From a virus (lineage: Duplodnaviria > Caudoviricetes), in the IMG/VR virus record IMGVR_UViG_3300032030_000007, positions 64,001 to 128,000 of that record: DNA of 64,000 nucleotides. The stretch is one strand, 5' to 3'. Positions 24,310 to 63,380 of the stretch are shown piece by piece. The notes beneath the pieces are model-generated. The model was not told the origin of the DNA. It saw only the letters and a list, made by a program, of their open reading frames with translations, and ran no database searches. The number at the start of each line of letters is the position of its first letter. Positions within the stretch are counted from its first letter, which is position 1. The position numbers and the translations under genes are program-made.

Positions 24310-25254
24310 TTAATTTAAAAATTTATTACGACAAGTATCATCAGTTATTAATATATTATTTAAATTTTCTATACAAAGTTTTGGTAATTGGTGATCTAAT
24401 TTCTTTAACGTTTTCTTAGATAATGCTCTTAATGTTTTAAATATTTGATTTGCATTTTTCTTTTCACCAGTTATTTCTATATATGCCTTTTCAATTTCTC
24501 CAATATTTTTATTCATTAATGTTCCTTTGAAAAATGCATTAATTTCATTATCTAATTTTTTATAAGCCTTATATACTTGTGAATTTTTTAATACTTTTAA
24601 TGCATCCTTAGGATTTTCAATTTTATCATTATTTTCTTCTAATTCTGCTTTAATTTCTGCAAAGAATGCATTCTTTTCATATCCTAATAATAAGTATAAT
24701 GCTTTCTTTAATAAATGTTCATTAGTATTTGATGAATCCTTTTGTATATTTTGATATAATAATGATTTTGCTGCATTAATATATCCATTATCACCTTTTA
24801 ATAACATTAAATAATTATTATATGCATGTGTTAGCTCATGCATTAATATCTCTTTTACTTTATTAAGGTGATTTTCATATTGATATATGTTTATGACAAC
24901 TTCATCAAATAAAAAATGATCATTTAAAGAATCATTATCAATATATTCACCACCACTATCATCAGATGAATCAATATCAACTATAAGTTTATCAAAAAAT
25001 ATATTCTTAAATGATGTTAAATCATTACTATCGAATGAATATTGATTATCCATCCCTTCCTTTTTTATTTTTTCATATATATATTTTGATAATTCTTCAC
25101 ACCCATCATATATACCATATTTTTCAAGAATAACGCGTCTTCTTGAATATAAATTATTTTCTTTATATTCAATTGCCAAATGTTGAAGCATACTATAGTC
25201 TATATAATCTTCAACAATACTTGTATCATTTATAAAATCAGAAATTAATTTCAC
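24310..25254 (-). CDS. Zincin-like metalloprotease-domain protein with capsid-targeting-like N-terminus
   Basis: ILMHELTHAY (HExxH), downstream E.NAF; N-terminus MKLISDFIND. Confidence 0.6.
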   Translation of the reverse strand: MKLISDFINDTSIVEDYIDYSMLQHLAIEYKENNLYSRRRVILEKYGIYDGCEELSKYIYEKIKKEGMDNQYSFDSNDLTSFKNIFFDKLIVDIDSSDDSGGEYIDNDSLNDHFLFDEVVINIYQYENHLNKVKEILMHELTHAYNNYLMLLKGDNGYINAAKSLLYQNIQKDSSNTNEHLLKKALYLLLGYEKNAFFAEIKAELEENNDKIENPKDALKVLKNSQVYKAYKKLDNEINAFFKGTLMNKNIGEIEKAYIEITGEKKNANQIFKTLRALSKKTLKKLDHQLPKLCIENLNNILITDDTCRNKFLN

Positions 25255-25565
25255 TTCTGTCTTACTTGAACATTAATATTCTTTTTTGCTTCAGATATAC
25301 GTTTATTTGCTTCATCCTGAATTGATAATGCATTATTAAGACCGTTTACTTTTTCTTCATAAACTGTAATCTTTGTGTTAAGCACAGTTATAGAATCATT
25401 TAATACTTTAATAGTAGAATCCATCTTCTGTACATATTCAGTATGATTCTTTTCAGATTCTTCAAATTTAGTTGAATTTGTACAAGATGATGTACATTTA
25501 GACATTCCAAACAATAGCAAAAGTACGATAACAATTATCTTCCAATTTTTCTTTAAAAATTCCAT
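25251..25565 (-). CDS. Membrane-anchored coiled-coil protein (spanin-like architecture)
   Basis: N-terminal hydrophobic helix, Cys residues, heptad-rich remainder. Confidence 0.4.
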   Translation of the reverse strand: MEFLKKNWKIIVIVLLLLFGMSKCTSSCTNSTKFEESEKNHTEYVQKMDSTIKVLNDSITVLNTKITVYEEKVNGLNNALSIQDEANKRISEAKKNINVQVRQK

Positions 25566-25610
25566 ACTTATTATATCTTTTTATATTATAATAATATAGT
25601 TAAGTCTTAT

Positions 25611-27568
25611 TTAATTTTCTACATATTCTTTAATTAGATTCTGTAACTTTGTAAAATAATATCTATCTACTGGAAATGCAAATCTTCCACCAGGATTACA
25701 CCAGAATCTTTTAATCTTACATTTTACTTTTCCATATTTATTATAACCGTAAGTACCAACTATACATACATATGCCCAATGGTCTGCTTTCTTGCAATCA
25801 TATCTAAGTTCAATATTCCATTCAAATCCAGGTTCCTTTTTAACATTTTCTAATACGTCAGATTTAAACATTGGAAGAAACTCTGTTATATAATCTTCAC
25901 AAAGTCCAAGATCTAAATCTGAATACTTATCGAAAATTTTATTCTCTTCAGGATAATCTGGAATCTGAACATCAATTATTTCAAGAATAAACTGCTCATA
26001 TCCAATATCACGAATAGTCCATTGTTCAGAATCTTTAGGAACAATAATATGCTTCTTAATTTTTTCAAGCATCTTATTTATAGAACGTCCTTTATAATCA
26101 AACCATCGGGAACAAAATGAATTTGAATGATATCCACCAACAAATACATTTATTTTATTGTATTTATCAAACTTAACTTCAAAATCTTCAATACGTTCAC
26201 AATAACTATCATCAACGTATTTTACACGAATATAATTTCTATATTTATTTTCTTCCATAATTACACCATTGTTCTACATCATTTATTAATAAAGGATGTT
26301 TACTAAGAAGCCATAAAATATTTTCCTCTATATTTTTCAAAATTCATTATCATACATATAAGAAGATCATTACAATAAATAGTTCCATCATTTATTTTAT
26401 TTTGTAGTAACTATTTAATATTCATAATTACAACAAATTTAATTTATATTAAATATCTTTTTCTTTTTACCACATTTATTGCAAATATATTCTGTATAAT
26501 GCTCTTGCCATGAATTATAGCAACCATCTCCACTAAAATCAGATTCTGTATGAGTAATAACACCAGTACAAGAATACTTATAATTATGCTTACAAAAAAG
26601 ACGTTTTAAAATATTCATAATCACAACATTTTAAAGTTCTTTCATATATAAATCATTAATGAATTTTTTCTATATTATTTTTAAGCCATTCTATAGTCTT
26701 AATTGCTATTTCTTTACGGCCATCTTTATCACGTCTACTATATGTAGGCGTATCACAATATTCATTATGACTAGACATATATGAAAGAGTCATATAATAT
26801 AATGTATTCTTTGCAATAGAATCTATATCGTTATCATTAATATCATTTATAGATGCTGCAAGCCAATTACATGCATCTGTTGCAAGATCCTTCATCTCAG
26901 GAATATCAACAAAACTAAAGTCATCTAAATCATGAATGAAATTCCACTTTTCTGGTTTCTCAAAACGAAGATAATCATAAATAGTATAAAACAAATCTTC
27001 GTTACAATTAAAAAGCTCAGCAATATAATGCATATTTAAACTAATTTAAGTACTTTACAAATATTGAATAATTCTTCCTTACTTACATATTCAGGAGATA
27101 CCCAAATTTTTCCAACTTCAACTCGTTTACGTGGCTTACACTGACCATCATAAACATAATCAACAGCATCTACGCAAAACTTAATTGTATTAGGAGCTTC
27201 CATGTAACACCCAATAATCATTCCTTTTCGTGTATTTGATTTATTTGAATGAAAGTATTCAACATCTGTACAAGAACTACCGCTACGATATCCATTGCAT
27301 AAATGTGATTTGCAATAATTAATTATCAAATTCAAATATTCTTGTTTACTCATACTTCAACCTCCTTCATTTCAATTCCATAAATCTTATAGTTACCAGC
27401 TTTGCCACCCCATCTTGTATCTTTATCAAATATTCGTTTCATGGCATTTGTAGCACCTACTATTCCTTTAAAAACTTTAGCATAATAAATATCTGGTGTC
27501 CAAACAAAATATGTATCACCCTGACGGAGATATTCTCCAGAATCCAAATCTTTAATAATATACTTCAT
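25611..27568 (-). other. Hypothetical genes (25611-26258, 26439-26624, 26656-27033, 27036-27353, 27350-27568)
   Basis: Co-oriented ORFs downstream of promoter copy 4. Confidence 0.65.
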
Positions 27569-27612
27569 AATTTTGAATTTTTTAAATTATTCCTATATTC
27601 ATTTATATATTA

Positions 27613-27641
27613 AATATAGTATATAACTTAAAAAATTCAAA
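27613..27641 (-). promoter_or_regulatory. Conserved promoter (copy 4)
   Basis: TTTGAA-N15-ACTATATT. Confidence 0.8.
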
Positions 27642-27689
27642 TATTATTTATATTTTGATAAATATATTCAATAATATTTATATTTTCAA

Positions 27690-30816: not shown

Positions 30817-31560
30817 ATGAAATCATTAAATAATTACATTTTAGAATCTAAAGAAACTGTTCAACTTAAAGAATCTGGACAGATTGTTTCTTTAGAAGGA
30901 ATTGATGAAGAATTTGCATCAAAAATAAACAACCTTAATGAAGCGCCAATTTATGAATGCTGTGGTTGTGGATGCTGTTGTGGTCCTGAGCCATGTGATA
31001 AATGCTGTGACACTGGTAAGTCATTCGTATTTACATCAGAATATCAAGTTGTTGATAGATTATCATATGTACCTGTTGTAGATGATTTATATCAAATTCA
31101 TTGGCAGTTTGGAAATAAGTTTATGTTCCACCCAGAAAATGAATCTGAAATAAAAGAACCTTTATATTTCAATGGTTCTGTAGAATATTCTATACCAAGA
31201 ATACCTAAGAATTCTCCAGGAATTGTTCAACCTACTGAAAATGCTATAGTTCCATTTAATAAGTCTAAAAAATTATATGACTTTGTTAAAGATCTTTGCA
31301 CAGCATATGATATGAATTATCCTGTTGTTTTAGAACATTGCGGTAAAGTACAATTATTCTTTATTAAGTCAACTGGAGATAATAAGATTGAAGGATCAAT
31401 TAAAGATTCATTAACAGAAGTTGCTAAAGTATTAGGCAAGCTTGATGATAAATCAGAAATAACATGGTCACAAGTATTAAATGTATCTATTGATAATTTA
31501 GATGATTTATATTATTTCTTAATTACTTGTACTGTTGATATGTCAAAATTTAATAAGTAA
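30817..31560 (+). CDS. Putative capsid-targeted protein with a Cys-rich segment
   Basis: N-terminus MKSLNNYILE-S; CCGCGCCCGPEPCDKCC. Confidence 0.6.
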   Translation: MKSLNNYILESKETVQLKESGQIVSLEGIDEEFASKINNLNEAPIYECCGCGCCCGPEPCDKCCDTGKSFVFTSEYQVVDRLSYVPVVDDLYQIHWQFGNKFMFHPENESEIKEPLYFNGSVEYSIPRIPKNSPGIVQPTENAIVPFNKSKKLYDFVKDLCTAYDMNYPVVLEHCGKVQLFFIKSTGDNKIEGSIKDSLTEVAKVLGKLDDKSEITWSQVLNVSIDNLDDLYYFLITCTVDMSKFNK

Positions 31561-32168
31561 TGAAACAATTAATTACATATATAAAAGAAAATCTAAAACC
31601 TGATATACAAAAGTTTGTTCAAAATGTTTATAATGCTGAATTAAAATTAATTCAGAATAATAAAATAGAACCTATAGAATTTGATGTTACAAAACTTAGT
31701 AAGCCAAAATCAGAATTCTTATATGATAATTATTATAATGACAAACAATTCAAAATGATAATTGATAATAAGATTTTTGGTTTTGTTGTAATAAGTCAGA
31801 TGCTAAAACAGGTTAAGCAATATCTTATTGATGGAGATAAAGAACTTAAACCATCTGCATATCCATATTGGTATCAAGGCGATAAAGGAGTGTATTGCAT
31901 AGGAATGTGTCTTTTTGATAAGAATATTGTTTATAAAGAAAACTACTTAACATTATGCGCAATTGAATCTGCATTATTCGTAAAGAATTCCCAGGATTTA
32001 AATAAAGCTATATTAAATGACTTTATAAAAGAAGTACCTAAGATGGGTCAATATGAAGGTATAGCTATTAAACCATTGCATCCCAAGATGAAAGCACAGA
32101 TAATGAAAATTGGGTTTAGAACAGATACAGAATCAGAAAATAAAGATATATTAATTTATAAATTATGA
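31560..32168 (+). CDS. Putative capsid-targeted protein, possible degenerate GNAT fold
   Basis: N-terminus MKQLITYIKE-N; C-terminal ...MKIGF resembles the GNAT Y.K.GF motif. Confidence 0.45.
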   Translation: MKQLITYIKENLKPDIQKFVQNVYNAELKLIQNNKIEPIEFDVTKLSKPKSEFLYDNYYNDKQFKMIIDNKIFGFVVISQMLKQVKQYLIDGDKELKPSAYPYWYQGDKGVYCIGMCLFDKNIVYKENYLTLCAIESALFVKNSQDLNKAILNDFIKEVPKMGQYEGIAIKPLHPKMKAQIMKIGFRTDTESENKDILIYKL

Positions 32169-32977
32169 AACACATAAAAGAATACATTAATGAAGAACTT
32201 CAACTTAATGAAGGTTTATTATTGATGGCACTATGCGGTGCTGCAGCTTTGCATTTTAGTATAAAAGGAATGAAAGCTATTCGTAAACACGCAGGTAATT
32301 TCTGGGGATGGGCTCTTGGAGAACGTGACCTTAATGTAGGAACAACTGCGGCTGAATCATTAGATGATAGACAAAATATCATTAATGAAGATGAAGAAGG
32401 TAAAATAAATAAAGATAATATCCAACCCATGCAAGTACCTGATGAAAAGGTATTAGGTCAATTAATGGATACTTTAAAATCAGATGCTAAAAAGAAACAA
32501 GGTTTTTATGTATTTGATAATTTATTCAATGAAACACCAGAACTTAAAAAATTAAATAAAGCTCCTTATTTTGCAAATTATGTAGTATTCATGGACCCGG
32601 GTTCAGATGAAAAGAAAGATGAAAAACCAAATTTCTATGGTATGCTTGGTTTCTCTCTTAAATATTGGAAAGTTATCGCAAAGAAAGGAAAGACTGATGA
32701 AATTAAAGCAGCAGGAGCAAAACTATCAAATTACATTAATATCTTTGCAGTTCAAACTGATGCTAAATATGCAAAACAAGGTTTATTTGATGTATATCTT
32801 GAAAAAATGAAGAAAGCTGTTAAAGAAGCTCACATGGATGGATTAACAATTAAATATGCTAATGATGATATTGCTAAAGTATTTGAAAAATACGGATTTA
32901 AGAAAGTTGAAGGCATTGATGGATATATGGTAATGAGCCTAAAGAAAGAAGATGATAAAGGAGATTCAATATTATAA
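32165..32977 (+). CDS. Putative capsid-targeted GNAT-family acetyltransferase-like protein
   Basis: N-terminus MKHIKEYINE; IFAVQTDAKYAKQGLF (motif A-like) and VFEKYGF. Confidence 0.55.
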   Translation: MKHIKEYINEELQLNEGLLLMALCGAAALHFSIKGMKAIRKHAGNFWGWALGERDLNVGTTAAESLDDRQNIINEDEEGKINKDNIQPMQVPDEKVLGQLMDTLKSDAKKKQGFYVFDNLFNETPELKKLNKAPYFANYVVFMDPGSDEKKDEKPNFYGMLGFSLKYWKVIAKKGKTDEIKAAGAKLSNYINIFAVQTDAKYAKQGLFDVYLEKMKKAVKEAHMDGLTIKYANDDIAKVFEKYGFKKVEGIDGYMVMSLKKEDDKGDSIL

Positions 32978-33843
32978 TGAAATCACTTAAAAACTATATA
33001 TACGAAAGTAAAATTAACGAAGAACTTGATGATAATTTATTTTGGCTTTTAGATAAATGGTTTGAAAGAAACGAAAATCAAAAGTCAGAATTTATTGGCA
33101 TCACTGTTCAATGTCGCCAAGAAGGAGATAAAGTAAATATTGATAATCTTAAGAAACTATTACATAATACTGAATTGAAAAAAGATTTGAAAGAATTCAT
33201 TAATTTCTTAAGTAATGATTTAGAACCTCAGAATAATAAAGATTATTTATATGAATTAAAACAGGTTATAGAAGTTGTTATTGGTAAAAAAGAAAAGAAT
33301 AAATATTTAGATGAAAGTCAAATATCAGAAAAACTAATCATAAATAAGAATACCAAAATAGATAAGTATCATTATCATCCTAAAGATAAAGATGAATTAC
33401 ATAGTTTAGTTAATAAATTAATAAAAGAACGTGGTGATAACGCAGATCTTAATGATATAGATACATCAAAAATAGATAATATGTCAGGTATATTTCTTAA
33501 TTCTGATTTTAACGGTGATATATCTGAATGGGATGTAAGTAATGTTAAAAATATGTTACTTATGTTTAATAGTTCTAAATTTGATGGAGATTTAAGTAAA
33601 TGGGATGTAAGTAATGTTACAAATATGGCGTCAATGTTTGCTGAATCTAAATTTACTGGTAAAAATGGAGATATATCTAATTGGGATGTAAGTAAAGTTA
33701 AAGCTACGAATAATATGTTTAAATCAACCAATTTTAATCAAGATTTATCAAAATGGGATGTACACAGTTTATTAACTATGGGTTTTATGTTTAAAGATTG
33801 CCCTATAGAAAAAAATCCGCCTAAATGGTATAAAAGTAAATAA
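32977..33843 (+). CDS. BspA/DUF285 repeat protein with capsid-targeting-like N-terminus
   Basis: 4-5 repeats of F.GD[IL]S.WDVS.V.NM..MF; N-terminus MKSLKNYIYE-S. Confidence 0.85.
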   Translation: MKSLKNYIYESKINEELDDNLFWLLDKWFERNENQKSEFIGITVQCRQEGDKVNIDNLKKLLHNTELKKDLKEFINFLSNDLEPQNNKDYLYELKQVIEVVIGKKEKNKYLDESQISEKLIINKNTKIDKYHYHPKDKDELHSLVNKLIKERGDNADLNDIDTSKIDNMSGIFLNSDFNGDISEWDVSNVKNMLLMFNSSKFDGDLSKWDVSNVTNMASMFAESKFTGKNGDISNWDVSKVKATNNMFKSTNFNQDLSKWDVHSLLTMGFMFKDCPIEKNPPKWYKSK

Positions 33844-33845: not shown

Positions 33846-34070
33846 ATGAAAAATTTAAAAACTTATATATTAGAATCTAAAAAGAAATATGATAAGTATA
33901 AAGTTTATTTTAATGGTAAGCTTGATAATACGTTTTCTGAAAATTCAAAAAAATGGAAACATGATCCTAAAGTAGGTCAAGGTTGGTATTGTGGAGGAAC
34001 AGTTTTCAAAATCGTAAAAATTGTAGATGATAAAGTTTATACTGAAGAAGATAAAAATTGCCACCCATAA
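33846..34070 (+). CDS. Small putative internal-head protein
   Basis: N-terminus MKNLKTYILE-S; basic, 74 aa. Confidence 0.55.
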   Translation: MKNLKTYILESKKKYDKYKVYFNGKLDNTFSENSKKWKHDPKVGQGWYCGGTVFKIVKIVDDKVYTEEDKNCHP

Positions 34071-34104: not shown

Positions 34105-35409
34105 TTATTGTACAAATTCTTTACTAAATCTATTAAAGATTGATTTAACACCAGGTTGAGGTTCATATGTAAATCCTAAGTCTTTAGCGATATTTCCAAA
34201 TATTCCATTAATGATTAATGAACCATCCAAATATTCAGGCTTAATTTTCTTAAAGCATTCATCCATAAGATCTTTATATTTCTGTGGATTAGCTTCAAGT
34301 TCTTCAATCTTGTTTAAGAAATCTTTTTCATCCTTAACATAAAGATACTCTGGAAGATCTAACAAATGATAGCAGTCATAGTCAGGATGTATGAATGGAA
34401 GCAATCCAATTGTAATCATTTCCCATGGCTTACATGTTACAAAACCAGGTGCCTGAGAATAAACCAATGTATATTTTGCTTCAGATACTTCTTTACCTAA
34501 GTCAAGCATTAACTTATCTTGAATCTGTGGATATTGTTCATATATTTCCTTATCCCATAATCCATATATCTTTGTATTCTCAAATTTAGTTCCTTTGAAA
34601 TTATCAATGATATATTTTTTATATGTACCTAATCTTGAGCTATAACCACCTGCACAATTAATCTTTCCTGTACCACAACCATTTGAAAGAACAATAACAG
34701 GCTCAACATCAGTATGGAACTTAGCTTCAATATCAATATTATCTCTCCAATTTTCAGAAAGACCCATTAAGAATATTTTCTCAAGATGAGAATAAATAGC
34801 CTTATGCTTAGTCTTAGTCATTGTTAAATCAGTTTCAGATTGAACATGGGGAACTGATGTTTCAAACTCCTGATTGATCTGGGAGAATATAAGTCTTTCT
34901 CTATTATAGAAATCTTTTGCATTAACAGTTATATATCTTGCATCTTCTGCCATTGTATAAACTGGGCATCCTAACTTATTTAATGCATAAAGAATAGGTG
35001 CTGTATAATTTTGAAAACAAATCAATGGACTATAATCATTTCCATCTTTCTTCTTTAAGAATCCTTTGATATTTACATTTGAACACATTCCAACAAACAC
35101 CAAACTAAAATCAGGCTTAACATTATTATCTGTAAAATAATTTACAATAGATTGATAATCCATATTCTTACGTACTTCTGGAGTCCATGCAGTATGTACA
35201 TTCTTATTTGGAAATAACTTCAAATATTCCTCTTCAGTACATTTATGTAATTCATTAGGACCAATAAAATAAAAATGATAATTTGGATTCATCTTAGCCA
35301 TTGATGAATATAATACCAAATCTGCTCCGCCACCAGTCTCAATGTGAATATTCTTCATTTTGACTGCTTTACCAATTTTTCCAATTAAAATGTTTTTTCT
35401 TTCATTCAT
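34105..35409 (-). CDS. Putative DNA (hmC) glycosyltransferase, GT-B/phage BGT-like, paralog 1
   Basis: EDARY, IYG.W, FVT.KPWEMI..G..PFIHPDYD; clear paralog of 36310-37623; context with gp42 homolog. Confidence 0.6.
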   Translation of the reverse strand: MNERKNILIGKIGKAVKMKNIHIETGGGADLVLYSSMAKMNPNYHFYFIGPNELHKCTEEEYLKLFPNKNVHTAWTPEVRKNMDYQSIVNYFTDNNVKPDFSLVFVGMCSNVNIKGFLKKKDGNDYSPLICFQNYTAPILYALNKLGCPVYTMAEDARYITVNAKDFYNRERLIFSQINQEFETSVPHVQSETDLTMTKTKHKAIYSHLEKIFLMGLSENWRDNIDIEAKFHTDVEPVIVLSNGCGTGKINCAGGYSSRLGTYKKYIIDNFKGTKFENTKIYGLWDKEIYEQYPQIQDKLMLDLGKEVSEAKYTLVYSQAPGFVTCKPWEMITIGLLPFIHPDYDCYHLLDLPEYLYVKDEKDFLNKIEELEANPQKYKDLMDECFKKIKPEYLDGSLIINGIFGNIAKDLGFTYEPQPGVKSIFNRFSKEFVQ

Positions 35410-35413
35410 AATA

Positions 35414-36310
35414 TTATCTACTTTTAATAAAATTCTTCAACTTTTCAAAATCTTTAGTTTCAATTATTTCTTTACATAATTCGTATAATTGATTATGATA
35501 TTTATCATTCTTTATTGGAAGATGATTATAATCTGAATAACTATTCCATCTTACAATAATACGAAATTTATTATTCTTATCAACTCGTAATGTTATACCA
35601 TCCCGATATTTTAAATATAGATTAATATGCATTAAACTTTCAATATCTTTACCAAAAGATGAATTATCAACAGATTTAATATCTATAAAGAAAGTATAAT
35701 ACATTAATGCAGCAATTCCTAATCCTTTTAATCTAATTTGAAATATAATATCTATATCTTCATGTTCATAAGGATTTTGCGTAAACTTAATTCCGCTTTC
35801 AATAATTCTTTTAATGTTAAATAAACCAAATTGACCAAAGTTACATGTCTTATTAACCATTACTTTTCCAGGATAATGAAATCCTAATGCAAATGATCTA
35901 ACTGTTGTTAAGAATGAAACGTTAAGTTCATTCATTTTCTTGTCACATTCATTGCATAAATCTAAGAAATCTGTACTAAGTCCTTTATATCCTTTTCCTG
36001 ATTCCAATTTACGGCCTTCAACTAATTTTCTTGAAAGATAAGTAATATCATCATCAATTAAAAAACTTTTTTCATATCCTTTATTATAAAGATAGCCAAA
36101 TATATATTGTTTCTTTTCCATTAATGTATGACAATCTGTTTTAATTAAATTAAGATTATCATATACATTATATTCATCTATATTTTTATCTTCATTTGAT
36201 AAAAAAACAAATACATCATATTGACTTCTCAAATTTTGGTCATTATTTAATCCTTTCAATAAATTTTTATAACGATTACCATAAGAAGGTATTGAAATAG
36301 CTGTTTTCAT
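35414..36310 (-). CDS. GT-A fold glycosyltransferase (TAGT / T-even hmC-sugar extending transferase-like)
   Basis: ISIPSYGNR, FLIDDDI (DxD), EDID...Q...G motifs. Confidence 0.65.
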   Translation of the reverse strand: MKTAISIPSYGNRYKNLLKGLNNDQNLRSQYDVFVFLSNEDKNIDEYNVYDNLNLIKTDCHTLMEKKQYIFGYLYNKGYEKSFLIDDDITYLSRKLVEGRKLESGKGYKGLSTDFLDLCNECDKKMNELNVSFLTTVRSFALGFHYPGKVMVNKTCNFGQFGLFNIKRIIESGIKFTQNPYEHEDIDIIFQIRLKGLGIAALMYYTFFIDIKSVDNSSFGKDIESLMHINLYLKYRDGITLRVDKNNKFRIIVRWNSYSDYNHLPIKNDKYHNQLYELCKEIIETKDFEKLKNFIKSR

Positions 36311-37623
36311 TAAATATGCATATTATTATAATTGTGATTAATAAATTTTAATTCTATATTATGCTTAGGTTCATATTCAAATCCTAAATCTTTTGCAATT
36401 TCTGTCATTATAAAATTATTAATATATGAGCCATCTCTATCTTCTTTCTTAATGCAATCCATACATTGATTAATAATAGAAAAATATAATTCGTTATTAT
36501 TATCCAATTCAATAACTTTATTTTTTAAGTCTTCAGGATCTTTAATATAAACATATTCAGGTAATCCAAGAATATGTTCAGGATCATAATCTGGATGTAT
36601 GAATGGAATAATTCCATTTGCAATCATTTCCCAAGGCTTAACAGTAACAAAATTCTTTATTTGTGAATAAACTAATGAATATCTTGCATCTTTTAAAATA
36701 TCATTAAGTTCAATCATTGGTTTATCCTCAAAATTATTTGGATATTTTTCATATATGTCTTCAGTCCATTTTCCATATATCTTAGATTTATTATAAATAG
36801 TATCTTTAAAATTATCTATGATATAATCTTTATATCCTTGAAAACGGCCATTCTTAATAGTTACATTTGAATTAATTGCCTTAGTACCGTTTCCATGTGA
36901 TATAACTAATAAATGATTTTCTTTTGGAGAATATAATTTCCTATTTAAATCAATTCTATCTTTCCAATTGTCAGGCATTCCAATAAGATCAATTCTTTCA
37001 ATATGAGCATATACACAATCAATTATATCTGTCTTTAATGTGAAATCAGTCATTGATGTTATATGCGTTATTGTTTCAAGCTTATGATTTGCTTGCGTAA
37101 ACACTTTACGTTCACGATTCCAAAGATCTCTAAAATTTAAAAGAATATTACGAGCATCATCAGCCATGCAATATACTGGGCATCCTAAATGATTAATTGT
37201 ATAAATATAAGGACCCATATAATTAAGTTGAGATATTAACAACTTACGTTTTCCACCATCTTTCTTTGGATAAAAATCAGGTACACATACTGTTGATGAT
37301 CCTCCCGTATTTAATAATGCAAAATCAATCTTTATATTATTATTATCAAAATATTTTATAATTGATGAGAAATCTTGTGTCTTTCTTATATCATTAGTCC
37401 ATGCTGAAAACACATTATGATTTGGAAATATTTCATCATATTCTTCTTCAGTCAACTTATGAAAATCAGATGGACCTATAAAATAAAAATTATAATCTGG
37501 GTTATATTGTGATAACAAAGAATATATCATCCTATCAGTATCACATGCTGTTTGAGTTCCTATCTTAATTCCTGTGAATTTAATTGTTAATCCTAATCTT
37601 CCTATAACAATATTTTTCTTCAT
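36310..37623 (-). CDS. Putative DNA (hmC) glycosyltransferase, paralog 2
   Basis: Shares NP.Y.FYFIGP, DAR, NRER..F.Q, YG.W, FVT.KPWEMI, PFIHPDYD with 34105-35409. Confidence 0.6.
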   Translation of the reverse strand: MKKNIVIGRLGLTIKFTGIKIGTQTACDTDRMIYSLLSQYNPDYNFYFIGPSDFHKLTEEEYDEIFPNHNVFSAWTNDIRKTQDFSSIIKYFDNNNIKIDFALLNTGGSSTVCVPDFYPKKDGGKRKLLISQLNYMGPYIYTINHLGCPVYCMADDARNILLNFRDLWNRERKVFTQANHKLETITHITSMTDFTLKTDIIDCVYAHIERIDLIGMPDNWKDRIDLNRKLYSPKENHLLVISHGNGTKAINSNVTIKNGRFQGYKDYIIDNFKDTIYNKSKIYGKWTEDIYEKYPNNFEDKPMIELNDILKDARYSLVYSQIKNFVTVKPWEMIANGIIPFIHPDYDPEHILGLPEYVYIKDPEDLKNKVIELDNNNELYFSIINQCMDCIKKEDRDGSYINNFIMTEIAKDLGFEYEPKHNIELKFINHNYNNMHI

Positions 37624-37626
37624 ATA

Positions 37627-38346
37627 TTAGTTATTTTTTATTTCAAAATCTTCATATCCTGTTGCTTCTATTGGTCTAAACTTTAAACTTTTATTTAACA
37701 TTAACCAATAAATAATATGTGATATATACATATGATTATGAATGTCTTCAAAACCCATCAATGCTTCATATGCAGTTCTAAAATCTTCAGCATTATTAAA
37801 ACCATATCCACCGCAATTAAATAGATTACTAACTACCCTTTTTTCAATAATATTAGTAACAAAATTTTGATCATCAATCGCTATATAAGACTTATGCTGC
37901 GGGTCAACTATTGGTGTTAATTCTAAAGGATAAACAAAAACAAAATTTCCTTTGCAATTATCTAAATCCATATCACAAGCATTATCTGCATCCTTAATTA
38001 TAATAGGACCTTCTATATCATATCTATTAATTTCATCATATATTGTTTGGGCTTGTGATGATGTTGGATTATTTACTTTTGATATAACAATATCTATATC
38101 TTCATATCGTTCTTCATCAAATTTAATTGCAGATTTAATCTTTCTTGTTATATTATATTCATTATCATGTTGTTTAAGTATAATAAAATGAATTGATCCT
38201 ATTTTTCTTAAATTCATTCTATTAAGAGTTTCAATACAATTCATTATACCAGTATCATTATTATATTGAAATTCTATTGGACACTTATCTTTATATTTTG
38301 GTGATGTATCTAACATCGGCATTATTAATGTATACTTTTCTTTCAT
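37627..38346 (-). CDS. Sugar nucleotidyltransferase-like protein (divergent Gly-rich loop)
   Basis: LIMPM, TSSQAQT, IKDAD, KSY, IIEKRVVS..F.CGGYGF, YISHII. Confidence 0.75.
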   Translation of the reverse strand: MKEKYTLIMPMLDTSPKYKDKCPIEFQYNNDTGIMNCIETLNRMNLRKIGSIHFIILKQHDNEYNITRKIKSAIKFDEERYEDIDIVISKVNNPTSSQAQTIYDEINRYDIEGPIIIKDADNACDMDLDNCKGNFVFVYPLELTPIVDPQHKSYIAIDDQNFVTNIIEKRVVSNLFNCGGYGFNNAEDFRTAYEALMGFEDIHNHMYISHIIYWLMLNKSLKFRPIEATGYEDFEIKNN

Positions 38347-39203
38347 AACTCTACAAATGATGTCAATATATTTAATACAAAATCTCTTACAGATTCTTTC
38401 TTAACATAAGGCAAGATTCTTAATATATTCATAATCTGTAATGTTTCATAATGCTTTTCATAATATTCATTTTTTGAAAAGTATTCATCTATTTTATTAT
38501 CTATATAACTAAATATCATATTAAGTCTAACGATATCATACTTTTTAGTATACATCATTGTTGACCAAAAATATTTAGTATCCTGTCTTAACTTAACAAT
38601 ATCTTGTATAGGTGTTTCAATAAACGAATCTAAATAATCAATAAAATAAAACTTATTTGATGTAAAAAGAATATTTGAAAATGTTAAATCACCATGACAT
38701 ATATTACATGGTAAATCCATTCTTTCTGGTAAGTTATTGAACTTCTTTTCACATGCATTAAGAATATATCTTACATTATCATTATTCTTTGTTAATTTAT
38801 TGTTTTCACAATTCTTTTTAACAGAATTAAACTTATCTATAAATACATTCTTTTCTACAGATTTAATTTCACAAGCATCTAATTCTTTATTAATATATTC
38901 TATAAATGTTTCTATAAAATGATTAATGTCTTCTGGAGATGCATTTTCAAAATAATCAATAAAATTCTTAGCATATACATAATCCATTAATATATATGCT
39001 TCTTTATCGTTTTTTACTAACTCATGAACCTTTGGATTAACTATAGATCCTCCTAAAGCATTATCATTTACTTGTTTATCACCTTGTAAATAAAGTCTAT
39101 TTAAATATTTTGGATCTAATGTAGATTTTTTAACAAAAAGCTTATCATTAATTTCTAAAATATCTATATTACAACCTGAATGACCTTTAATATCAATAGT
39201 CAT
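38343..39203 (-). CDS. APH/choline-kinase-like phosphotransferase (putative sugar kinase)
   Basis: GHSGC, V.K, CHGDLTFSNIL, FIDYLDS, D..KLRQD. Confidence 0.8.
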   Translation of the reverse strand: MTIDIKGHSGCNIDILEINDKLFVKKSTLDPKYLNRLYLQGDKQVNDNALGGSIVNPKVHELVKNDKEAYILMDYVYAKNFIDYFENASPEDINHFIETFIEYINKELDACEIKSVEKNVFIDKFNSVKKNCENNKLTKNNDNVRYILNACEKKFNNLPERMDLPCNICHGDLTFSNILFTSNKFYFIDYLDSFIETPIQDIVKLRQDTKYFWSTMMYTKKYDIVRLNMIFSYIDNKIDEYFSKNEYYEKHYETLQIMNILRILPYVKKESVRDFVLNILTSFVEL

Positions 39204-39320
39204 ATTTTTAGTACATATATTTATATTTTAATATAGTCATTGTAAATAAAATTATCAATGATATTAGTACATATTTATTATTAATAAATAGTCAACAAAA
39301 TAAATATATAAAATAAATCT

Positions 39321-41234: not shown

Positions 41235-41261
41235 CAAACATATTTGATTATTATATAAATT

Positions 41262-41288
41262 AAAGGTACCCATATTATGGGTACCTTT
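41262..41288. terminator. Bidirectional terminator
   Basis: aaaggtacccata-t-tatgggtaccttt. Confidence 0.8.
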
Positions 41289-41620
41289 GTTTGATTTGGA
41301 TTCTCAAATAACTTGATTACCATGTCTGCATACAACTGTCTGGTATTATTTTATTGAATCCATGTTTAATGTTTAACCTATTTAAATGTTATTTTATGAA
41401 TATATTTAATTGGTCGAATCTCTAATCTTCATTCTGAAGCCCTCCATCGGTTTGCGGCGACGATTAGGGTTGTTTCGCCTTCACCCATAAGCCCAGTCTC
41501 AAGAAATAATTAAAATCAAATCGGACGATCTCTTGCCATGGTTATGGACTTTATTGATATGGATTTAAAACCAAATATTGGGAAAACTTTCCACTGGATT
41601 TTCTATCTCCTTCGTTAGTT
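41288..41620 (-). ncRNA. Candidate structured non-coding RNA (family not identified)
   Basis: No substantial ORF, locally GC-richer, several potential stems, bounded by a terminator. Confidence 0.4.
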
Positions 41621-46295: not shown

Positions 46296-46313
46296 ATTTT
46301 CTTTTATTCTTTT

Positions 46314-47030: not shown

Positions 47031-47033
47031 ATA

Positions 47034-47693: not shown

Positions 47694-49298
47694 ATGAATA
47701 TTGAACAAAAATTTAATTATAGAGATCCAATCGCTATATCTGAAGTATATGAAAATCTAGATAAAGTTCGTAAAGAACGTCGTGAAAAAGAAATATTAGA
47801 AGCTAAACAACAGAAAGAAGAAGGCGCATATTTCTTTAAGAACATACTTTTCTTTACAAACGATAGAGATTCAAAATCAAATAAGACATTAAAGAATCTC
47901 GAAGATGCTGTCAAAGGCAAAGACGTAACAATCTATCCATTCGTTGCTGAAGAAATCGATTATAAAGCTACTGATGATAAAATAGTATTTAATGACAATA
48001 AAAACAAATATAAGATAACAGAACAATCTAATATTGATACTATTGTCATAACACGTCTTGGTATTCAAGAATCTGAAGAATGTATGGAACTTATTAAAGA
48101 ACTTCAGGACTGGGGATTTTTTGTTATCAATCCAGTGCAATCTGCAAAGAAAGCTTCTAATAAGTATACATCTGCTGTATTGATGGAACGTTATGAAATT
48201 CCACAACCTAAGTTTACATTAATATCTAAAAATGATATCAAAGATGGTGAAGAATCATTAAATAAGAAACTTAAGACAATATATAAAGAAGTTGGAAAAG
48301 ATAAAGACAAAGATAAAGAATTAGAATATGTTGTTAAGATTCTTGATGGACATGGCGGAACTGGTGTAACAATGCAGACAGGTAAGACATTATTATCTAT
48401 GCTTCAGATGGCATTTGCTGTAGATGAAGAACTTGAATTATTAGTTCAGAAAAAAGAAGAAGCAGATGGAGGAGATATTCGTGTCCATGTTTTGACTATG
48501 AGAACTGAACAGAAGATACTTGCTGCTATGAAACGTGTTAAGATTGGTGGTGACTTCCGTTCAAATGTATCTTTAGGAGCTACTGCAGAAAAAGTTACAT
48601 TAACTAAAGAACAAGAAGAAATTGCACTTAAAGTTGCTAAAATTTCGGGTATGCCTTGGTGTGCTGTAGATATCATGCCATTAGTAAAAGGATCAAATCC
48701 TGAAATTGGAGATAATGTAGTATTAGAGTATAATGCATCTCCAGGTACTGATGGAATATCTGAAGTAATAGAAGAAAACTTTATGAAGATATTACTTGAT
48801 AATATTAACGATATTAATCAATTAGTACTTGCACCTAAAGCAATAGGTTATCTTGAAAATGTAACATTCACAATGGATAATGATGATGAGTTTACAATGG
48901 AAGCTAAACTTGATACAGGTAATGGTGCTAAAGCTTCTACAATAGGATGCGACGAGTTAACTTATAGAGGTGATACAATCGTTGCTACTATTGAAGGTAA
49001 GAAATATAATTTTACAAAACATGGCGAATCAAATGCTATTGTTGGTCAAGTAACAGAAACAAGAAATACAGTATTAGTACCTTGCATTCAGATTGGTTCT
49101 CGTAAATTATTAGATGTTGAATTTGCTTTGGTTGATAATAGAAAGAAGAAACAAAAAGTATTATTGAATAGAGACATAATGAGTAAGATGGGTTATCTTA
49201 TTAGTCCTGCAAAGAAACATGTACTTGAAGATGATCTTGCTTGGGATTTTGAACAGCAAAAACTTAAAGCAGAACAAGAAAAAAATAATACAAAATAA
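47694..49298 (+). CDS. RimK-like ATP-grasp ligase fused to a C-terminal retropepsin-like (RimB-type) protease
   Basis: VIN...A.NK, K..DGHGG.GV, DIRV, FRSNVSLG, AVDI, LEYNASPG; then AKLDTGNG and VLLNR. Confidence 0.85.
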   Translation: MNIEQKFNYRDPIAISEVYENLDKVRKERREKEILEAKQQKEEGAYFFKNILFFTNDRDSKSNKTLKNLEDAVKGKDVTIYPFVAEEIDYKATDDKIVFNDNKNKYKITEQSNIDTIVITRLGIQESEECMELIKELQDWGFFVINPVQSAKKASNKYTSAVLMERYEIPQPKFTLISKNDIKDGEESLNKKLKTIYKEVGKDKDKDKELEYVVKILDGHGGTGVTMQTGKTLLSMLQMAFAVDEELELLVQKKEEADGGDIRVHVLTMRTEQKILAAMKRVKIGGDFRSNVSLGATAEKVTLTKEQEEIALKVAKISGMPWCAVDIMPLVKGSNPEIGDNVVLEYNASPGTDGISEVIEENFMKILLDNINDINQLVLAPKAIGYLENVTFTMDNDDEFTMEAKLDTGNGAKASTIGCDELTYRGDTIVATIEGKKYNFTKHGESNAIVGQVTETRNTVLVPCIQIGSRKLLDVEFALVDNRKKKQKVLLNRDIMSKMGYLISPAKKHVLEDDLAWDFEQQKLKAEQEKNNTK

Positions 49299-49319: not shown

Positions 49320-49817
49320 ATGAGATCAATTAAACAAGTTATAACAGAAGCTAATGAATCTAAAGATAAGACCTGGAAGCAAATTAGAAAAGGAGATACA
49401 ATTTACTATTTAGAATGTTATAATTCAGATAAAAATCATAAGATAGAAGTTGCAACAGTAACTAAGTCAATGTATTATGAAACAATGTATCTTGGTGGTG
49501 ATTATAGAGTTCCTGAAAATTATGCTATAGAATTTACTCGTAAATCAAAGAATAAAGAAGGTTCTGCTGTTATTTGGAAAGAAGACTGGGATAAAAAAAT
49601 TTTATGTTCCACTTCAATGGATGGCACAGTATTTCATTATATTTCTACAGATAGAGAGTTATTAACAGAATTCCAAGAAAAACTTGTAGATGATGACGTT
49701 AAGAAAATTGAAAAGGAAATTGAAAAGTTCACCATTCAATATGAATCTAAAAAGAAAGAATTGGAAGATAAGATGAATGCTTTAATAGCAAAGAAATTAG
49801 AAAAATATGAAGACTAA
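49320..49817 (+). CDS. Putative capsid-targeted protein
   Basis: N-terminus MRSIKQVITE-A; C-terminal coiled coil. Confidence 0.55.
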   Translation: MRSIKQVITEANESKDKTWKQIRKGDTIYYLECYNSDKNHKIEVATVTKSMYYETMYLGGDYRVPENYAIEFTRKSKNKEGSAVIWKEDWDKKILCSTSMDGTVFHYISTDRELLTEFQEKLVDDDVKKIEKEIEKFTIQYESKKKELEDKMNALIAKKLEKYED

Positions 49818-49819: not shown

Positions 49820-50353
49820 ATGAAAGATATAACTAAATATATAAATGAATCCTTAGATAATGCTATATTTGAAGGATTTTTAGATAAATTGAAAAATGCA
49901 ATTTATAAAGTAACAAATAATCCTAAAAAATATTTTAAAATAGTAAATGATAAATTACAATATTTAAAAGATAAAGAAGATTACAATTATTTCAAAAAGA
50001 AAGATCCTGAAGAAGTTTCTAAAGAATTAGATAATCTTAATAATGATAAAGATCTAAAAGATATATATCTTTATGCAAAAAAAGATTATAAAAATTTATC
50101 ATATTATGAAAATAACGAATATAATTATATGCATTTTATTAAAGACATTAAAGAATATTTTAATTGTGATGACAATAAAGCATATGCAATTATGCAGATA
50201 GCATTAGTAATTGCTAACGAAATAAAACAAGAAGAAAAGAAAAAGAAAGAAAAAGAAAAATCATATTATAATTATTCAAATAGATCTAGTGGTTCCAATA
50301 CTGCTGCTTTTGTAGGATCTGCTGTTGCAGCAGCTATGGTAATGCACAAATAA
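49820..50353 (+). CDS. Putative capsid-targeted protein with hydrophobic C-terminus
   Basis: N-terminus MKDITKYINE-S; IFEG; C-terminus AAFVGSAVAAAMVM. Confidence 0.55.
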   Translation: MKDITKYINESLDNAIFEGFLDKLKNAIYKVTNNPKKYFKIVNDKLQYLKDKEDYNYFKKKDPEEVSKELDNLNNDKDLKDIYLYAKKDYKNLSYYENNEYNYMHFIKDIKEYFNCDDNKAYAIMQIALVIANEIKQEEKKKKEKEKSYYNYSNRSSGSNTAAFVGSAVAAAMVMHK

Positions 50354-50394: not shown

Positions 50395-50595
50395 ATGAAA
50401 AGACTTAAGATATATTTAGAGGAATTATTTGCAACACCAGCAACAACAATAGGCATGGGTAATGTATCTATGCCAGCTGAACCTAATGTACAAGGTGGTT
50501 CTGGAGATGTTCCTGTATGTCCTCAGTGCATAGATATTAAGACTGGTAAAATTTATAAAAGAAAAAAGAAATTTAAAAGATATAAGATAATATGA
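50395..50595 (+). CDS. Small putative internal-head protein
   Basis: N-terminus MKRLKIYLEE; basic tail. Confidence 0.55.
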   Translation: MKRLKIYLEELFATPATTIGMGNVSMPAEPNVQGGSGDVPVCPQCIDIKTGKIYKRKKKFKRYKII

Positions 50596-53715: not shown

Positions 53716-54027
53716 ATGTTAAATTTTGGATATGTATATTTGCTTTGCGATGGGGAGAAATTCAAAATAGGTATGACAACAAAACCTATTGAAAAACGTA
53801 TATCAGAATTGCAAACAGGCAATCCTAATGAAATATGGATGCATTCTTATTATGAAACTAAATATCCAAATAAAATAGAAAAGATGCTACATAAACGTCA
53901 TGCAGCATCTAATGTGAAAAACGAATGGTTTGATATGACTGTAGAAGAAGTCTACAATTTTAAAAATGAATGTAAGCATTGTGAAGATCTTATCAAACCT
54001 TTGATTGAATCCAATCCGTTTTTCTAA
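53716..54027 (+). CDS. GIY-YIG/T5orf172-family nuclease-like protein
   Basis: GYVYL...KIG.T....KRI.ELQTGNP...EK.LH......EWF. Confidence 0.85.
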   Translation: MLNFGYVYLLCDGEKFKIGMTTKPIEKRISELQTGNPNEIWMHSYYETKYPNKIEKMLHKRHAASNVKNEWFDMTVEEVYNFKNECKHCEDLIKPLIESNPFF

Positions 54028-59136: not shown

Positions 59137-60822
59137 ATGAAATTATTTAAGACAATAGATACTTCTTTTGAAAAATTTGATAATACGATTAATCAATATT
59201 TATCAAAAGCATTAAATGCTATTGGAATGCAATATTCAAATAATCAATTATTTGGTATTATATTCAATGGTATCAAGGGTGTTATGCAGAATGCTATGTT
59301 TTATATAGAAGATGCTTTAACAGAACAAAATATATTTAAAGCAAGTAGAAAGCAATCTGTATATTCATTAGCAAAAGTTTCTGGTTATGAAGCATATTAT
59401 GGTTCAGCTGCTTCAGGATTATTGCTTGGCAAACTTGAGATTAATAATGGTTTAGATTCAAAATCTACGAAAGTATTTATTCATAATCATTGCACAGTAA
59501 GAAATAAGAATACTGGTGTAGAATATTCAATAATACTTCCAACTGATACTTATGTATTTGATGTTTCAAAACCATTAGTAACTCACCAATTTAAAATTGT
59601 CCAAGGAGAATATGAAAGATATGTGTATAGTGCTAAAGGAACATCATTAGAAGCAATACATATAACTTCATTACAATTATTTGATAGATCATATATAGAA
59701 GTAAAAGTAAATGGTGAAACATGGGAAGAAGTTGGCAATCTTTATGATATGACTGAAGATGGTCACGAATATATGTTATCAATAGGTTATGACAATACTT
59801 TTGATATAATATTTGGTAATGGTGTTTATGGAAAGATTATGGAAGAAGGTGATTCTGTAACAGTTGATTATTTAAAGCACACTGGTGAATCTGGAAACAT
59901 TTCAGAAAATACTGCTACAGATTTTATATTTTCAGAATATGGTAAAGATAGTTTAGGAAACAGTATTAACATAAATGATTATATGAAATTAACAATGTCT
60001 ACTTGTGTATCAGGTGGAACTGATTCTGATACTATTGATTTTATTAGAAATATGGTAGGAACAAATTCTCGTTCATTAGTATTGGCATCTGAAGACAATT
60101 TCAGACTATTCTTTAAACGTTTTTCATTTATAGGATATATATCTTGTTGGTCAGAATCAAATAATATGACGGTTAATGTTGTTGCGTTAACTAATATCAA
60201 AGAACGTCTGAAGTCAAATAAAGATTATCTTAAGTATGATGCAAAAGATATGGTTCTGAATAAAGAGCAAAAAGATATGATTATTAATACATTGGAAAAT
60301 TCTAAAAAGACTTTTGCTGGAATAACAATTAACTTTAAAGATCCCGTTATTAGAAAATATGCATTCTTATGTTATGTAAAAATAGATAACGTATATGTTA
60401 AAGATACTGTAAGAGATTCAATTCGCAATACATTATTAGATTATTTCATTAATCTTAAAGATAGTACACAATTTATTTCAAAGGCTGAACTGATATCTAA
60501 TATAATGAATAACTGTTCTGATATAAAAGGATTAGACATTAATATTATATCTGAAGCAGCAGAAAAAGCATATTATGAAAATTCATATATTAAATACGAA
60601 TTAAAACATAATAATGGTGTTTACTATTATATTCCTGTTAAACACATATATGATAAATCTGATTTGCCAGGATTAGATGAATATGGAAATATTTCATTAG
60701 ATTCTAAACTTGAAGTGCCAATGCTTCATGGTGGATTTAAATATTATCCTGAGAAAGAAGGATCAATTAAGAATAAAAAAGATTCAATAATGATTAACGA
60801 TATAGAAATTTATTTTATATAA
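59137..60822 (+). CDS. Baseplate wedge subunit, T4 gp6/baseplate J-like
   Basis: E.NI..A....SVY.LAK..GY, I.FGNG..GK, V.YL...G..GN, GG.D.D....IR. Confidence 0.8.
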   Translation: MKLFKTIDTSFEKFDNTINQYLSKALNAIGMQYSNNQLFGIIFNGIKGVMQNAMFYIEDALTEQNIFKASRKQSVYSLAKVSGYEAYYGSAASGLLLGKLEINNGLDSKSTKVFIHNHCTVRNKNTGVEYSIILPTDTYVFDVSKPLVTHQFKIVQGEYERYVYSAKGTSLEAIHITSLQLFDRSYIEVKVNGETWEEVGNLYDMTEDGHEYMLSIGYDNTFDIIFGNGVYGKIMEEGDSVTVDYLKHTGESGNISENTATDFIFSEYGKDSLGNSININDYMKLTMSTCVSGGTDSDTIDFIRNMVGTNSRSLVLASEDNFRLFFKRFSFIGYISCWSESNNMTVNVVALTNIKERLKSNKDYLKYDAKDMVLNKEQKDMIINTLENSKKTFAGITINFKDPVIRKYAFLCYVKIDNVYVKDTVRDSIRNTLLDYFINLKDSTQFISKAELISNIMNNCSDIKGLDINIISEAAEKAYYENSYIKYELKHNNGVYYYIPVKHIYDKSDLPGLDEYGNISLDSKLEVPMLHGGFKYYPEKEGSIKNKKDSIMINDIEIYFI

Positions 60823-62467: not shown

Positions 62468-62490
62468 TATTATTAAGATATATTTCATAG

Positions 62491-62520
62491 AAGATAGGTT
62501 ATTAATTAACCTATCTTTTT
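62491..62520 (+). terminator. Intrinsic terminator
   Basis: aagataggtta...taacctatctt plus T-run. Confidence 0.75.
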
Positions 62521-62553
62521 TATTATTATATATATTTATTGAATTAAATTATA

Positions 62554-62937
62554 ATGAAAAGTATCTACGATATTATAAATGAAAGCAAATCAATAGATTC
62601 AGGATTATTAGAATTTAAAGATGGTTCTGATAGCGTTGTATCTATGATAGTAAAACGTATGGAAATATGGGATGCAAATAAAACTCCTACATCAAGACTT
62701 CCAATGTTTTTAGTAAGTGAAAATCATGAAGCAATAAGATGGGTACAAAAGAAATATCTTACAACACCTAAAGACAGTGGAGAGACTGTTGAAACTTATG
62801 ATGGATATTTCAAAGAATATCTTATGAAGAAAAATACTCCAAATGATTGTTATATAATTGGTGTATTTGTAGATAGATGCTTCATACCAATTATCAATAA
62901 AGAAACATATGACAATATAATTGAAAAGATTTCTTAA
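62554..62937 (+). CDS. Putative capsid-targeted protein
   Basis: N-terminus MKSIYDIINE-S. Confidence 0.55.
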   Translation: MKSIYDIINESKSIDSGLLEFKDGSDSVVSMIVKRMEIWDANKTPTSRLPMFLVSENHEAIRWVQKKYLTTPKDSGETVETYDGYFKEYLMKKNTPNDCYIIGVFVDRCFIPIINKETYDNIIEKIS

Positions 62938-63092
62938 TATATGAAAATCCAATTCTTAACAGATAGAATAGGATTTAATATTATAGATGGCGGTAAAATA
63001 TTAGAAACTAGAATATTTAACGATGAAAAAGATATGTATAATTTTTTATACATAAAAATGCATGCAAGAGAATATATAGATTTTTTAGAAAT

Positions 63093-63380
63093 ATGAAAAC
63101 TATTTCAGAACAAGAAAATAAACAAGAAACAATAAATGAATCTTTAGCATATGAAGAAATCATTCAAAAACTTAATGAAGCTAAAGAAAACAATACTCCT
63201 ATTGAAGAAGGATTACTTGGCGCAATAGGTGGAGTTATTCTCGGTACAACAATTGGACCTAAACTTGGTGCTGCAATATGTAAAGCTTTAGGATGTGATC
63301 CAAAAGGAACATTCGGATCTTTATTGACATCTAAGTTAGTTATGGCGAGTATTTGTGGAACAATGGGTTGGAAAATGTGA
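63093..63380 (+). CDS. Small protein with glycine-zipper hydrophobic C-terminal half
   Basis: INES, LNEA and IEEG sites followed by GLLGAIGGVILG...LGAAI..ALG. Confidence 0.6.
   Translation: MKTISEQENKQETINESLAYEEIIQKLNEAKENNTPIEEGLLGAIGGVILGTTIGPKLGAAICKALGCDPKGTFGSLLTSKLVMASICGTMGWKM

Follow-up and report, generated by a model that had tools for sequence, protein, structure and literature searches.

A ten-residue N-terminal leader resembling the T4 capsid targeting sequence recurs on many dissimilar proteins of a phage clade

The internal head proteins of bacteriophage T4 reach the prohead core via a capsid targeting sequence (CTS), and the gp21 protease removes propeptides of 10-20 residues from the internal proteins (IPs), Alt and gp24 (PMC5694885). 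The CTS of IPI, IPII/IPIII and Alt, the 10-residue propeptide of gp24 and their removal by gp21 are credited to Mullaney and Black (1996) in the account that PMC5694885 gives of that work. In the phiKZ-like giant phages (phiKZ, 201phi2-1 and SPN3US), head-packaged proteins are cut after Glu by a gp21-family protease, and their propeptides, which are mostly longer than 100 residues, form paralogous families and are cut at Ser/Ala/Gly-x-Glu, are thought to target the proteins to the prohead (PMC5694885). Here, we describe nine open reading frames (ORFs) with a common 10-residue start, hereafter the tag, in a 64-kb stretch of Caudoviricetes DNA (positions 64,001 to 128,000 of IMG/VR record IMGVR_UViG_3300032030_000007), the whole of which is called the window. 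Judging from its sequence and its distribution among related phages, this N-terminus is probably a capsid-targeting propeptide of the T4 type.

At 27% GC, the window appears to belong to a very large phage genome. It holds 103 called ORFs, 25 on the + strand and 78 on the − strand. The nine N-termini listed in an earlier note on this DNA are each the first ATG of a + strand ORF, and they lie, as was claimed, on the strand of the structural genes, the baseplate wedge gene being likewise on +. All nine fit the pattern M-[KR]-x-[LI]-x-x-[YIV]-[IL]-x-E. The regular-expression check proposed in that note gives matches in 9 of the 103 called ORFs (9/25 on the + strand and 0/78 on the − strand), and six-frame translation of the whole window returns the same nine as the sole matches, all of them ORF starts. 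A motif no more frequent than chance would give in AT-rich N-termini had been named beforehand as the outcome that would speak against the claim; about 0.011 matches are expected from N-terminal composition, against the nine observed. Related IMG/VR contigs were found via the baseplate protein (49-61% identical), namely G001 (168 kb), G002 (46 kb) and G003 (376 kb), the last being the closest near-complete relative (98% complete by CheckV; baseplate protein 61% identical). With a position-specific profile made from 74 tags (65 taken from other contigs), the nine window tags score 8.5-24.4, and the next best ATG start in the window scores -1.9. Two variants with Asp at position 10, which had been grouped with the nine, do not belong with them: ORF 45441-46295 (−) has a profile score of -1.9, ORF 24310-25254 (−) starts with GTG, and both, located on the − strand amid early or metabolic genes, lack a Pfam family. 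The nine tagged ORFs and two further + strand genes are given below, a slash marking the bond after the Glu of an [IL]-x-E-like site.

30817-31560, + strand: tagged ORF of 247 residues, MKSLNNYILE/S; profile score 22.2; ortholog in G001; no Pfam or PHROG family
31560-32168, + strand: tagged ORF of 202 residues, MKQLITYIKE/N; GNAT-fold body (AlphaFold2, Foldseek)
32165-32977, + strand: tagged ORF of 270 residues, MKHIKEYINE/E; GNAT-fold body (AlphaFold2, Foldseek)
32977-33843, + strand: tagged ORF of 288 residues, MKSLKNYIYE/S; DUF285/BspA-type repeats (Pfam DUF285, 6.4e-32; PHROG 17273)
33846-34070, + strand: tagged ORF of 74 residues, basic, MKNLKTYILE/S; profile score 24.4; tagged ortholog in G003 at 184552
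49320-49817, + strand: tagged ORF of 165 residues, MRSIKQVITE/A; profile score 15.8; no known family
49820-50353, + strand: tagged ORF of 177 residues, MKDITKYINE/S, with IFE/G at 16-18 and a hydrophobic C-terminus; profile score 21.5
50395-50595, + strand: tagged ORF of 66 residues, MKRLKIYLEE/L, with a Lys/Arg-rich tail; 29 close metagenomic homologs
62554-62937, + strand: tagged ORF of 127 residues, MKSIYDIINE/S; profile score 17.1; has the baseplate wedge and AAA ATPase genes just upstream; ortholog in G001
47694-49298, + strand: RimK-type ATP-grasp gene, untagged (Pfam RimK, 7.3e-22); heads a + strand unit with three tagged ORFs
59137-60822, + strand: baseplate wedge (T4 gp6-like) gene (PHROG 219, 2.3e-23); on the strand of all tagged ORFs

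A 95-residue ORF at 63093-63380 (+) starts with MKTISEQENKQETINE followed by Ser. Its score of -6.8 is below the tag profile, and it may carry a longer leader ending in I-N-E.

The likeness to the T4 signal noted earlier holds at the level of single positions. According to the T4 record NC_000866, IPII and IPIII begin with MKTYQEFIAE/A and gp24 with MAKINELLRE/S. The clade consensus reads M-K-x-[LI]-x-x-[YF]-[IL]-x-E, with Ser, Lys, Ala, Thr, Gly or Glu as the next residue, and its length as well as positions 1, 2, 4 (hydrophobic), 7 (aromatic), 8 and 10 coincide with the IPII/IPIII leader. Like the T4 CTS, the tag occupies the extreme N-terminus, counts 10 residues, ends in the gp21 motif Leu/Ile-x-Glu with a mostly small residue after it, and is carried by mostly unrelated, often small proteins, in a lineage whose near-complete member G003 has a Peptidase_S77 protease and a Gp23-type capsid protein. 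Furthermore, the tagged loci are variable inside a conserved gene order; the internal-protein loci of T-even phages are variable too. The differences from T4 are equally clear. The window comes from a distant phage of the group formed by PAU, the Tenacibaculum phages and huge phages: by tblastn, its baseplate wedge protein has 23-30% identity to gp17 of Sphingomonas phage PAU, to genes of the Tenacibaculum phages pT24 and PTm1 that are annotated as baseplate wedge, and to sequences from uncultured phages of 460-735 kb, with about 30% identity to PAU gp17 and the pT24 and PTm1 genes. The 64 kb contain nine tagged genes, and a genome can have up to about 46, compared with a handful in T4; recognisable enzymes occur among the putative cargo, and the protease is fused to a repeat-bearing scaffold-like region.

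Unlike the phiKZ-like propeptides, the clade leader is a short and uniform peptide that ends in Ile/Leu-x-Glu and precedes bodies that are not homologous, and with its 10 residues and Ile/Leu at P3 it is not a propeptide of the phiKZ/SPN3US type. The cargo-loading peptides of encapsulins offer a likeness by analogy only, in that a short modular peptide sends diverse enzymes, including ferritin-like ones, into an HK97-fold shell. Encapsulin signals are usually C-terminal, no maturation protease removes them, and the shell contains no DNA.

The tag is widespread in the related contigs. A back-translated DNA pattern of the tag gives 22, 7 and 31 matches in G001, G002 and G003, respectively, versus 1, 0 and 0 for the reversed control, and the profile identifies 30, 8 and 46 tagged ORFs in these contigs, or 93 together with the window. 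These 93 ORFs encode proteins of 57-360 residues (median 138). When the first 12 residues are removed, BLASTP sorts the bodies into 80 clusters, of which 72 are singletons. Pfam families among the 93 comprise DUF285 (6), P-loop kinases of the Zeta-toxin/AAA_33/KTI12 type (2-3), ferritin or rubrerythrin, Pol-beta nucleotidyltransferase, HAD hydrolase and GNAT; most of the proteins have no family. Further away, the tag pattern has no match in PAU and PTm1 and three in pT24, whereas a 735-kb uncultured phage carries several related tags of the MK-x-F-x-x-F-I-N-E type and Chryseobacterium phage MA9V-1 carries two, MKNFFSFINE and MKTFTCFINE. PTm1 has 29.7% GC and the same protease family but no shared leader, its largest group of similar N-termini counting 2 members versus 43 in G003. 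The absence of a shared leader from this equally AT-rich phage indicates that the tag is not an artefact of base composition.

The region at 28-60 kb of G003 is collinear with the window and includes baseplate genes, an AAA ATPase, the RimK-type ligase, and sugar and nucleotide genes. Tagged slots occur at the same places in both, but they differ in the number and kind of genes. The tagged genes undergo cassette turnover inside conserved synteny. Two further leader types were observed in G003. A second variant, MK-x-[IL]-x-x-K-I-N-E-[GSV], is present on small ORFs in tagged islands (186869, 189416, 190092, 229255, 231744 and 232402, all +), and some ORFs have longer leaders in which the canonical tag lies 10-15 residues in.

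The bodies that follow the tag in the window are, as the earlier note had it, mostly dissimilar in sequence, in keeping with the 80 clusters, but 'unrelated' is too strong for two neighbours, 31560 and 32165, which share a GNAT fold. In the 31560 family, the AlphaFold2 model has a mean predicted local distance difference test (pLDDT) score of 92.3, residues 1-9 being the sole segment below 50, and the top Foldseek matches are the GNAT toxins KacT, AtaT and TacT (E 2e-5). For the bodies of 31560 and 32165 taken together, the best solved matches are these three and the acetyltransferase NatD, with E of about 1e-4 to 2e-5. KacT, AtaT and TacT are tRNA-acetylating toxins. The matches of the predicted models point to a GNAT fold, not to a substrate. 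By hhalign, the comparison of the two adjacent proteins is not significant; there is no detectable sequence similarity between them, and paralogy is not shown. The GNAT-like label given earlier stands for 32165, on a fold match, and extends to 31560. The DUF285 label of ORF 32977 is borne out by its Pfam match, and this ORF has seven tagged relatives over the four contigs. The Cys-rich label fits ORF 30817, which contains 12 Cys, with a stretch CCGCGCCCG (CCGCGCCCG..C..CC); after its tag come about 35 residues with several hydrophobic-x-E sites, then the Cys-rich stretch and, at the C-terminus, a domain that belongs to no known family. The ESM Atlas returned nothing for ORF 30817. In its G001 ortholog (start 109258, −), Asn replaces Glu at position 10. 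Two other labels found no backing: none of the tagged proteins has an HExxH motif or a Pfam or PHROG match that would make it a zincin, and the ART-like label has no Pfam or PHROG match either. Beyond the DUF285, Cys-rich and two GNAT-fold proteins, five tagged ORFs of the window have no known family.

Several features suggest that the tag is a separate element ahead of the folded protein. The 31560 family was gathered independently, from representatives clustered at 50% identity, and in 32 divergent homologs, down to 22% identity to the query, M1 and E10 are the only invariant columns. ORF 32165 has a second conserved site, LNE/G at 14-16, followed by a hydrophobic helix and the GNAT-fold body. 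In a 42-member alignment of its family, Y7, E10 and E16 (site [IL]-N-E) are nearly invariant, and the AlphaFold2 model has pLDDT below 50 at residues 1-15 and a confident body. Among tagged enzymes from G003 and G001, Pfam profile matches set in beyond the tag, at residue 16-17 for AAA_33 and at residue 22 for HAD. On these models, the tag is a disordered add-on ahead of folded domains, and the putative cut site, Glu10, is under selection. A second site, [LIVM]-N-E-G, is recurrent in some tagged families, and in the longer leaders of the 31560 family it recurs at varying distances. The earlier statement that many tagged proteins carry further [IL]-x-E sites holds in part: such sites are present at residues 11-30 in 37% of the tagged versus 26% of the untagged proteins (Fisher p = 0.024), so that the enrichment is only weak.

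The head machinery of the clade is visible in G003. A 542-residue ORF at 212537-214165 contains a Peptidase_S77 domain, the family of T4 gp21 (E 8.4e-13), and a Gp23-family major capsid gene lies directly downstream of it (E 2.8e-28). The protease ORF is a fusion of the protease domain, an acidic linker, a coiled coil and seven or eight tandem 12-residue repeats, EVQNWVVEEFAP, which contain W-[IV]-x-E-E-F. It ranks first of 650 ORFs for the motif [FYW][ILV]xE, with 9 sites (Poisson 1e-5, although the repeats are not independent events). Such a scaffold-like region studded with [FYW][ILV]xE, a four-residue pattern in which the tag also ends, fits a protease that would cut at that motif and a cargo that would imitate the scaffold. 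The clade is a large one: its protease family is very common in public metagenomes, where a threshold of E ≤ 1e-10 gives more than 2600 cluster representatives, on contigs of up to 467 kb.

A more specific link to the capsid comes from the 66-residue tagged ORF at 50395-50595. Its body aligns to residues 66-126 of the G003 major capsid protein (MCP) with an hhalign probability of 95.8% (E 6.8e-9), and G003's own copy of this protein (44193-44366, −) matches its own MCP with a BLASTP E of 2e-5. By these alignments, the tagged protein and the N-terminal arm region of the capsid protein are homologous. Proteins of 57-66 residues of the same build are conserved in the window, G003 and pT24 (BPT24_102), the tag being followed by a body with ATP-x-x-T-x-G-M-G-N ... 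G-S-G-D-[IV]-P and a Lys/Arg-rich tail. They may act as a mimic of the capsid N-arm that anchors DNA to the shell. In MA9V-1, both tagged ORFs, MA9V1_146 and MA9V1_150, lie in the head module, one of them between genes annotated as 'capsid assembly protein' and 'prohead core protein serine protease'; this recalls T4, with its small core genes 67 and 68 immediately upstream of the protease gene 21. Furthermore, hydrophobic-x-E sites cluster near the N-terminus in the MCPs of G003, PTm1 and MA9V-1: the first ~60 residues (46 in G003) contain 3-4 of them, and the 100 residues that follow contain none. This clustering fits a propeptide on the MCP and leaves its cut site unfixed.

Collectively, these observations support the capsid loading proposed earlier, through the T4 match, the [IL]-x-E end, the mostly unrelated bodies, the add-on architecture and the S77 and Gp23 genes of relatives; what does not carry over is the detail of the Asp10 variants, of the zincin and ART-like labels and of wholly 'unrelated' bodies. 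As a T4-type propeptide, the tag would direct late-made proteins into the assembling prohead core. A gp21-family (Peptidase_S77) protease would then cut after Glu10, at [aromatic]-[ILV]-x-E and mostly before Ser, Ala, Gly, Thr or Lys. Once matured, the proteins would be retained in the head alongside the DNA, and many or most of them would enter the host at infection.

Several points weigh against this reading. Targeting, packaging, cleavage, retention and injection are deduced for every tagged protein. The cleavage specificity is assumed from T4, and other gp21-family proteases prefer Ser/Ala/Gly-x-Glu (PMC5694885). There is no protease or capsid gene within the window itself, the machinery being that predicted in the relative G003. 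PAU and PTm1 share the protease family yet lack the tag, so that the protease alone is no predictor of the tag. The weak enrichment of extra internal [IL]-x-E sites counts on the same side, and a load of at least 40 cargo species per capsid would be far beyond anything measured for T4. Finally, a search for late promoters found AGATATA-like words upstream of some tagged ORFs and established no promoter motif that would connect the tagged genes with those of the virion.

The tag could also be a prohead-protease propeptide or assembly handle on proteins that act in head assembly only, as core, scaffold-like or shell-lining components, and that are degraded or remain bound to the capsid, with no injected effectors among them. 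Such a role would suit the 66-residue protein with its resemblance to the MCP N-arm and its basic tail of DNA-binding type, and the position of the MA9V-1 tagged ORFs inside a head-assembly module; T4 gp24, gp67 and gp68 are also processed (PMC5694885). Many of the tagged bodies are, however, enzymes without an obvious assembly role (GNAT folds, AAA_33/Zeta-type kinases, HAD, Pol-beta nucleotidyltransferase and ferritin-like proteins), and their turnover, like that of accessory cassettes, fits cargo such as the T4 IPs and Alt better. We regard an exclusive role in assembly as unlikely.

A function unrelated to the capsid is improbable as well. The tag would then be a recognition peptide for protease-timed activation or degradation, for a chaperone or docking partner or for another compartment, or else a booster of late-gene translation. 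AT-rich genomes often have MK starts with AAA codons, one of the tagged operons begins with a RimK-type ligase, and packaging of the tagged proteins in the capsid is itself a deduction, all of which leave some room for such a role. An effect on translation, however, fails to explain the invariant Glu10, Ile/Leu8 and aromatic residue 7 combined with free synonymous codons, or the absence of the leader from equally AT-rich PTm1. Three observations point to the head instead: the resemblance to the T4 CTS position by position, the co-occurrence with head genes of the T4 type and the homolog of the capsid N-arm. As for export, the tag is charged and amphipathic, with polar residues at 3, 5, 6 and 9 and Glu10 at its end, and it has no hydrophobic core of about 10-15 residues as in a Sec/Tat or lipoprotein signal peptide.

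The shared start could, alternatively, be a DNA-level element, such as a recombination site for cassettes, a promoter or a ribosome-loading sequence, or else the relic of a recent duplication. The tagged genes do occupy swap-prone slots, and the k-mer AAAGAT is mildly enriched upstream of them (22/93 tagged versus 50/623, uncorrected and at no fixed position). Yet the 30-nucleotide tags have a mean pairwise nucleotide identity of 0.66, and synonymous codons vary at conserved residues, with TTA and CTT for Leu4 and TCN and AGY for Ser. Indeed, across the 93 tags, codon choice at Lys2, Ile/Leu4, Tyr7, Ile8 and Glu10 mirrors that of the gene bodies. Free synonymous codon use and 66% nucleotide identity argue against a recombination site, a promoter or any other DNA-level element, and the bodies show no sequence similarity to one another in 72 of the 80 clusters. 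Selection acts on the tag peptide and not on the DNA, which makes an explanation at the DNA level very improbable. Chance, finally, although 27% GC makes Lys, Ile, Asn and Tyr frequent, is refuted by the excess of nine matches over 0.011 expected, by the reversed pattern (0-1 versus 7-31 matches) and by PTm1 as a negative control, and its probability is negligible.

The surroundings of the tagged genes are briefly as follows. Nucleotide-metabolism and other early-type genes occupy the − strand of the window, among them an NrdD-like reductase (PHROG 487, 1e-169), a thymidylate-synthase-family gene and a nucleotidyl transferase. Between the tagged islands, the − strand block at 34105-47600 contains glycosyltransferase-like genes, NDP-sugar genes (epimerase, nucleotidyl transferase, HAD) and the thymidylate-synthase-family gene, and it is collinear with 46-56 kb of G003. 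The RimK-type gene followed by tagged ORFs is also found in G003 (44749-46368), so that this arrangement is conserved. RimK-type proteins belong to a glutamate-ligase family; Pfam reported no fused RimB-like protease for 47694-49298. This 534-residue ORF upstream of the tagged trio was considered as a candidate protease and rejected, being a RimK ATP-grasp protein with no match to the protease loci of the relatives. A small nuclease gene of the GIY-YIG/T5orf172 type at 53716-54027 (+) (Pfam MUG113, 3.4e-16) lies between early-type genes and is probably a homing endonuclease.

The principle of a capsid-targeting leader is known from T4, and it is the scale that is notable here, with tagged genes numbering into the dozens per genome. 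A full-text literature search on "capsid targeting" returned, among phages, work on T4, P1 and phiKZ-like phages only. The jumbo-phage overviews PMC7824862 and PMC13282480 make no mention of capsid-targeting leaders or prohead proteases, and we found no paper describing such leaders for this clade. Beyond the T4-type propeptide itself, we tentatively propose a wider reading, which is possible but which we do not consider the likelier outcome. According to it, a clade of huge gut or rumen phages would pack several dozen different proteins per genome as a swappable effector arsenal delivered with the DNA, comprising GNAT acetyltransferases, P-loop kinases, a HAD phosphatase, a nucleotidyltransferase, ferritin-like proteins and DUF285 repeat proteins. 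The tag would imitate the W-[IV]-x-E-E-F of the protease-scaffold fusion; mimicry of the scaffold would thus bring the cargo into the head, and the cut made at that motif would also free it.

Should the tag function as its T4 counterpart does, the proteins that a huge uncultured phage brings into its host cell could be read from sequence alone. This would give a view of the first wave of host takeover and of anti-defence functions that are otherwise invisible without a cultured host, and the number of phage proteins known to be injected together would rise from a handful to dozens. The tagged genes would then constitute a ready list of candidate counter-defence enzymes, and the tag itself could serve as a short portable loading signal for foreign proteins in capsids other than that of T4.

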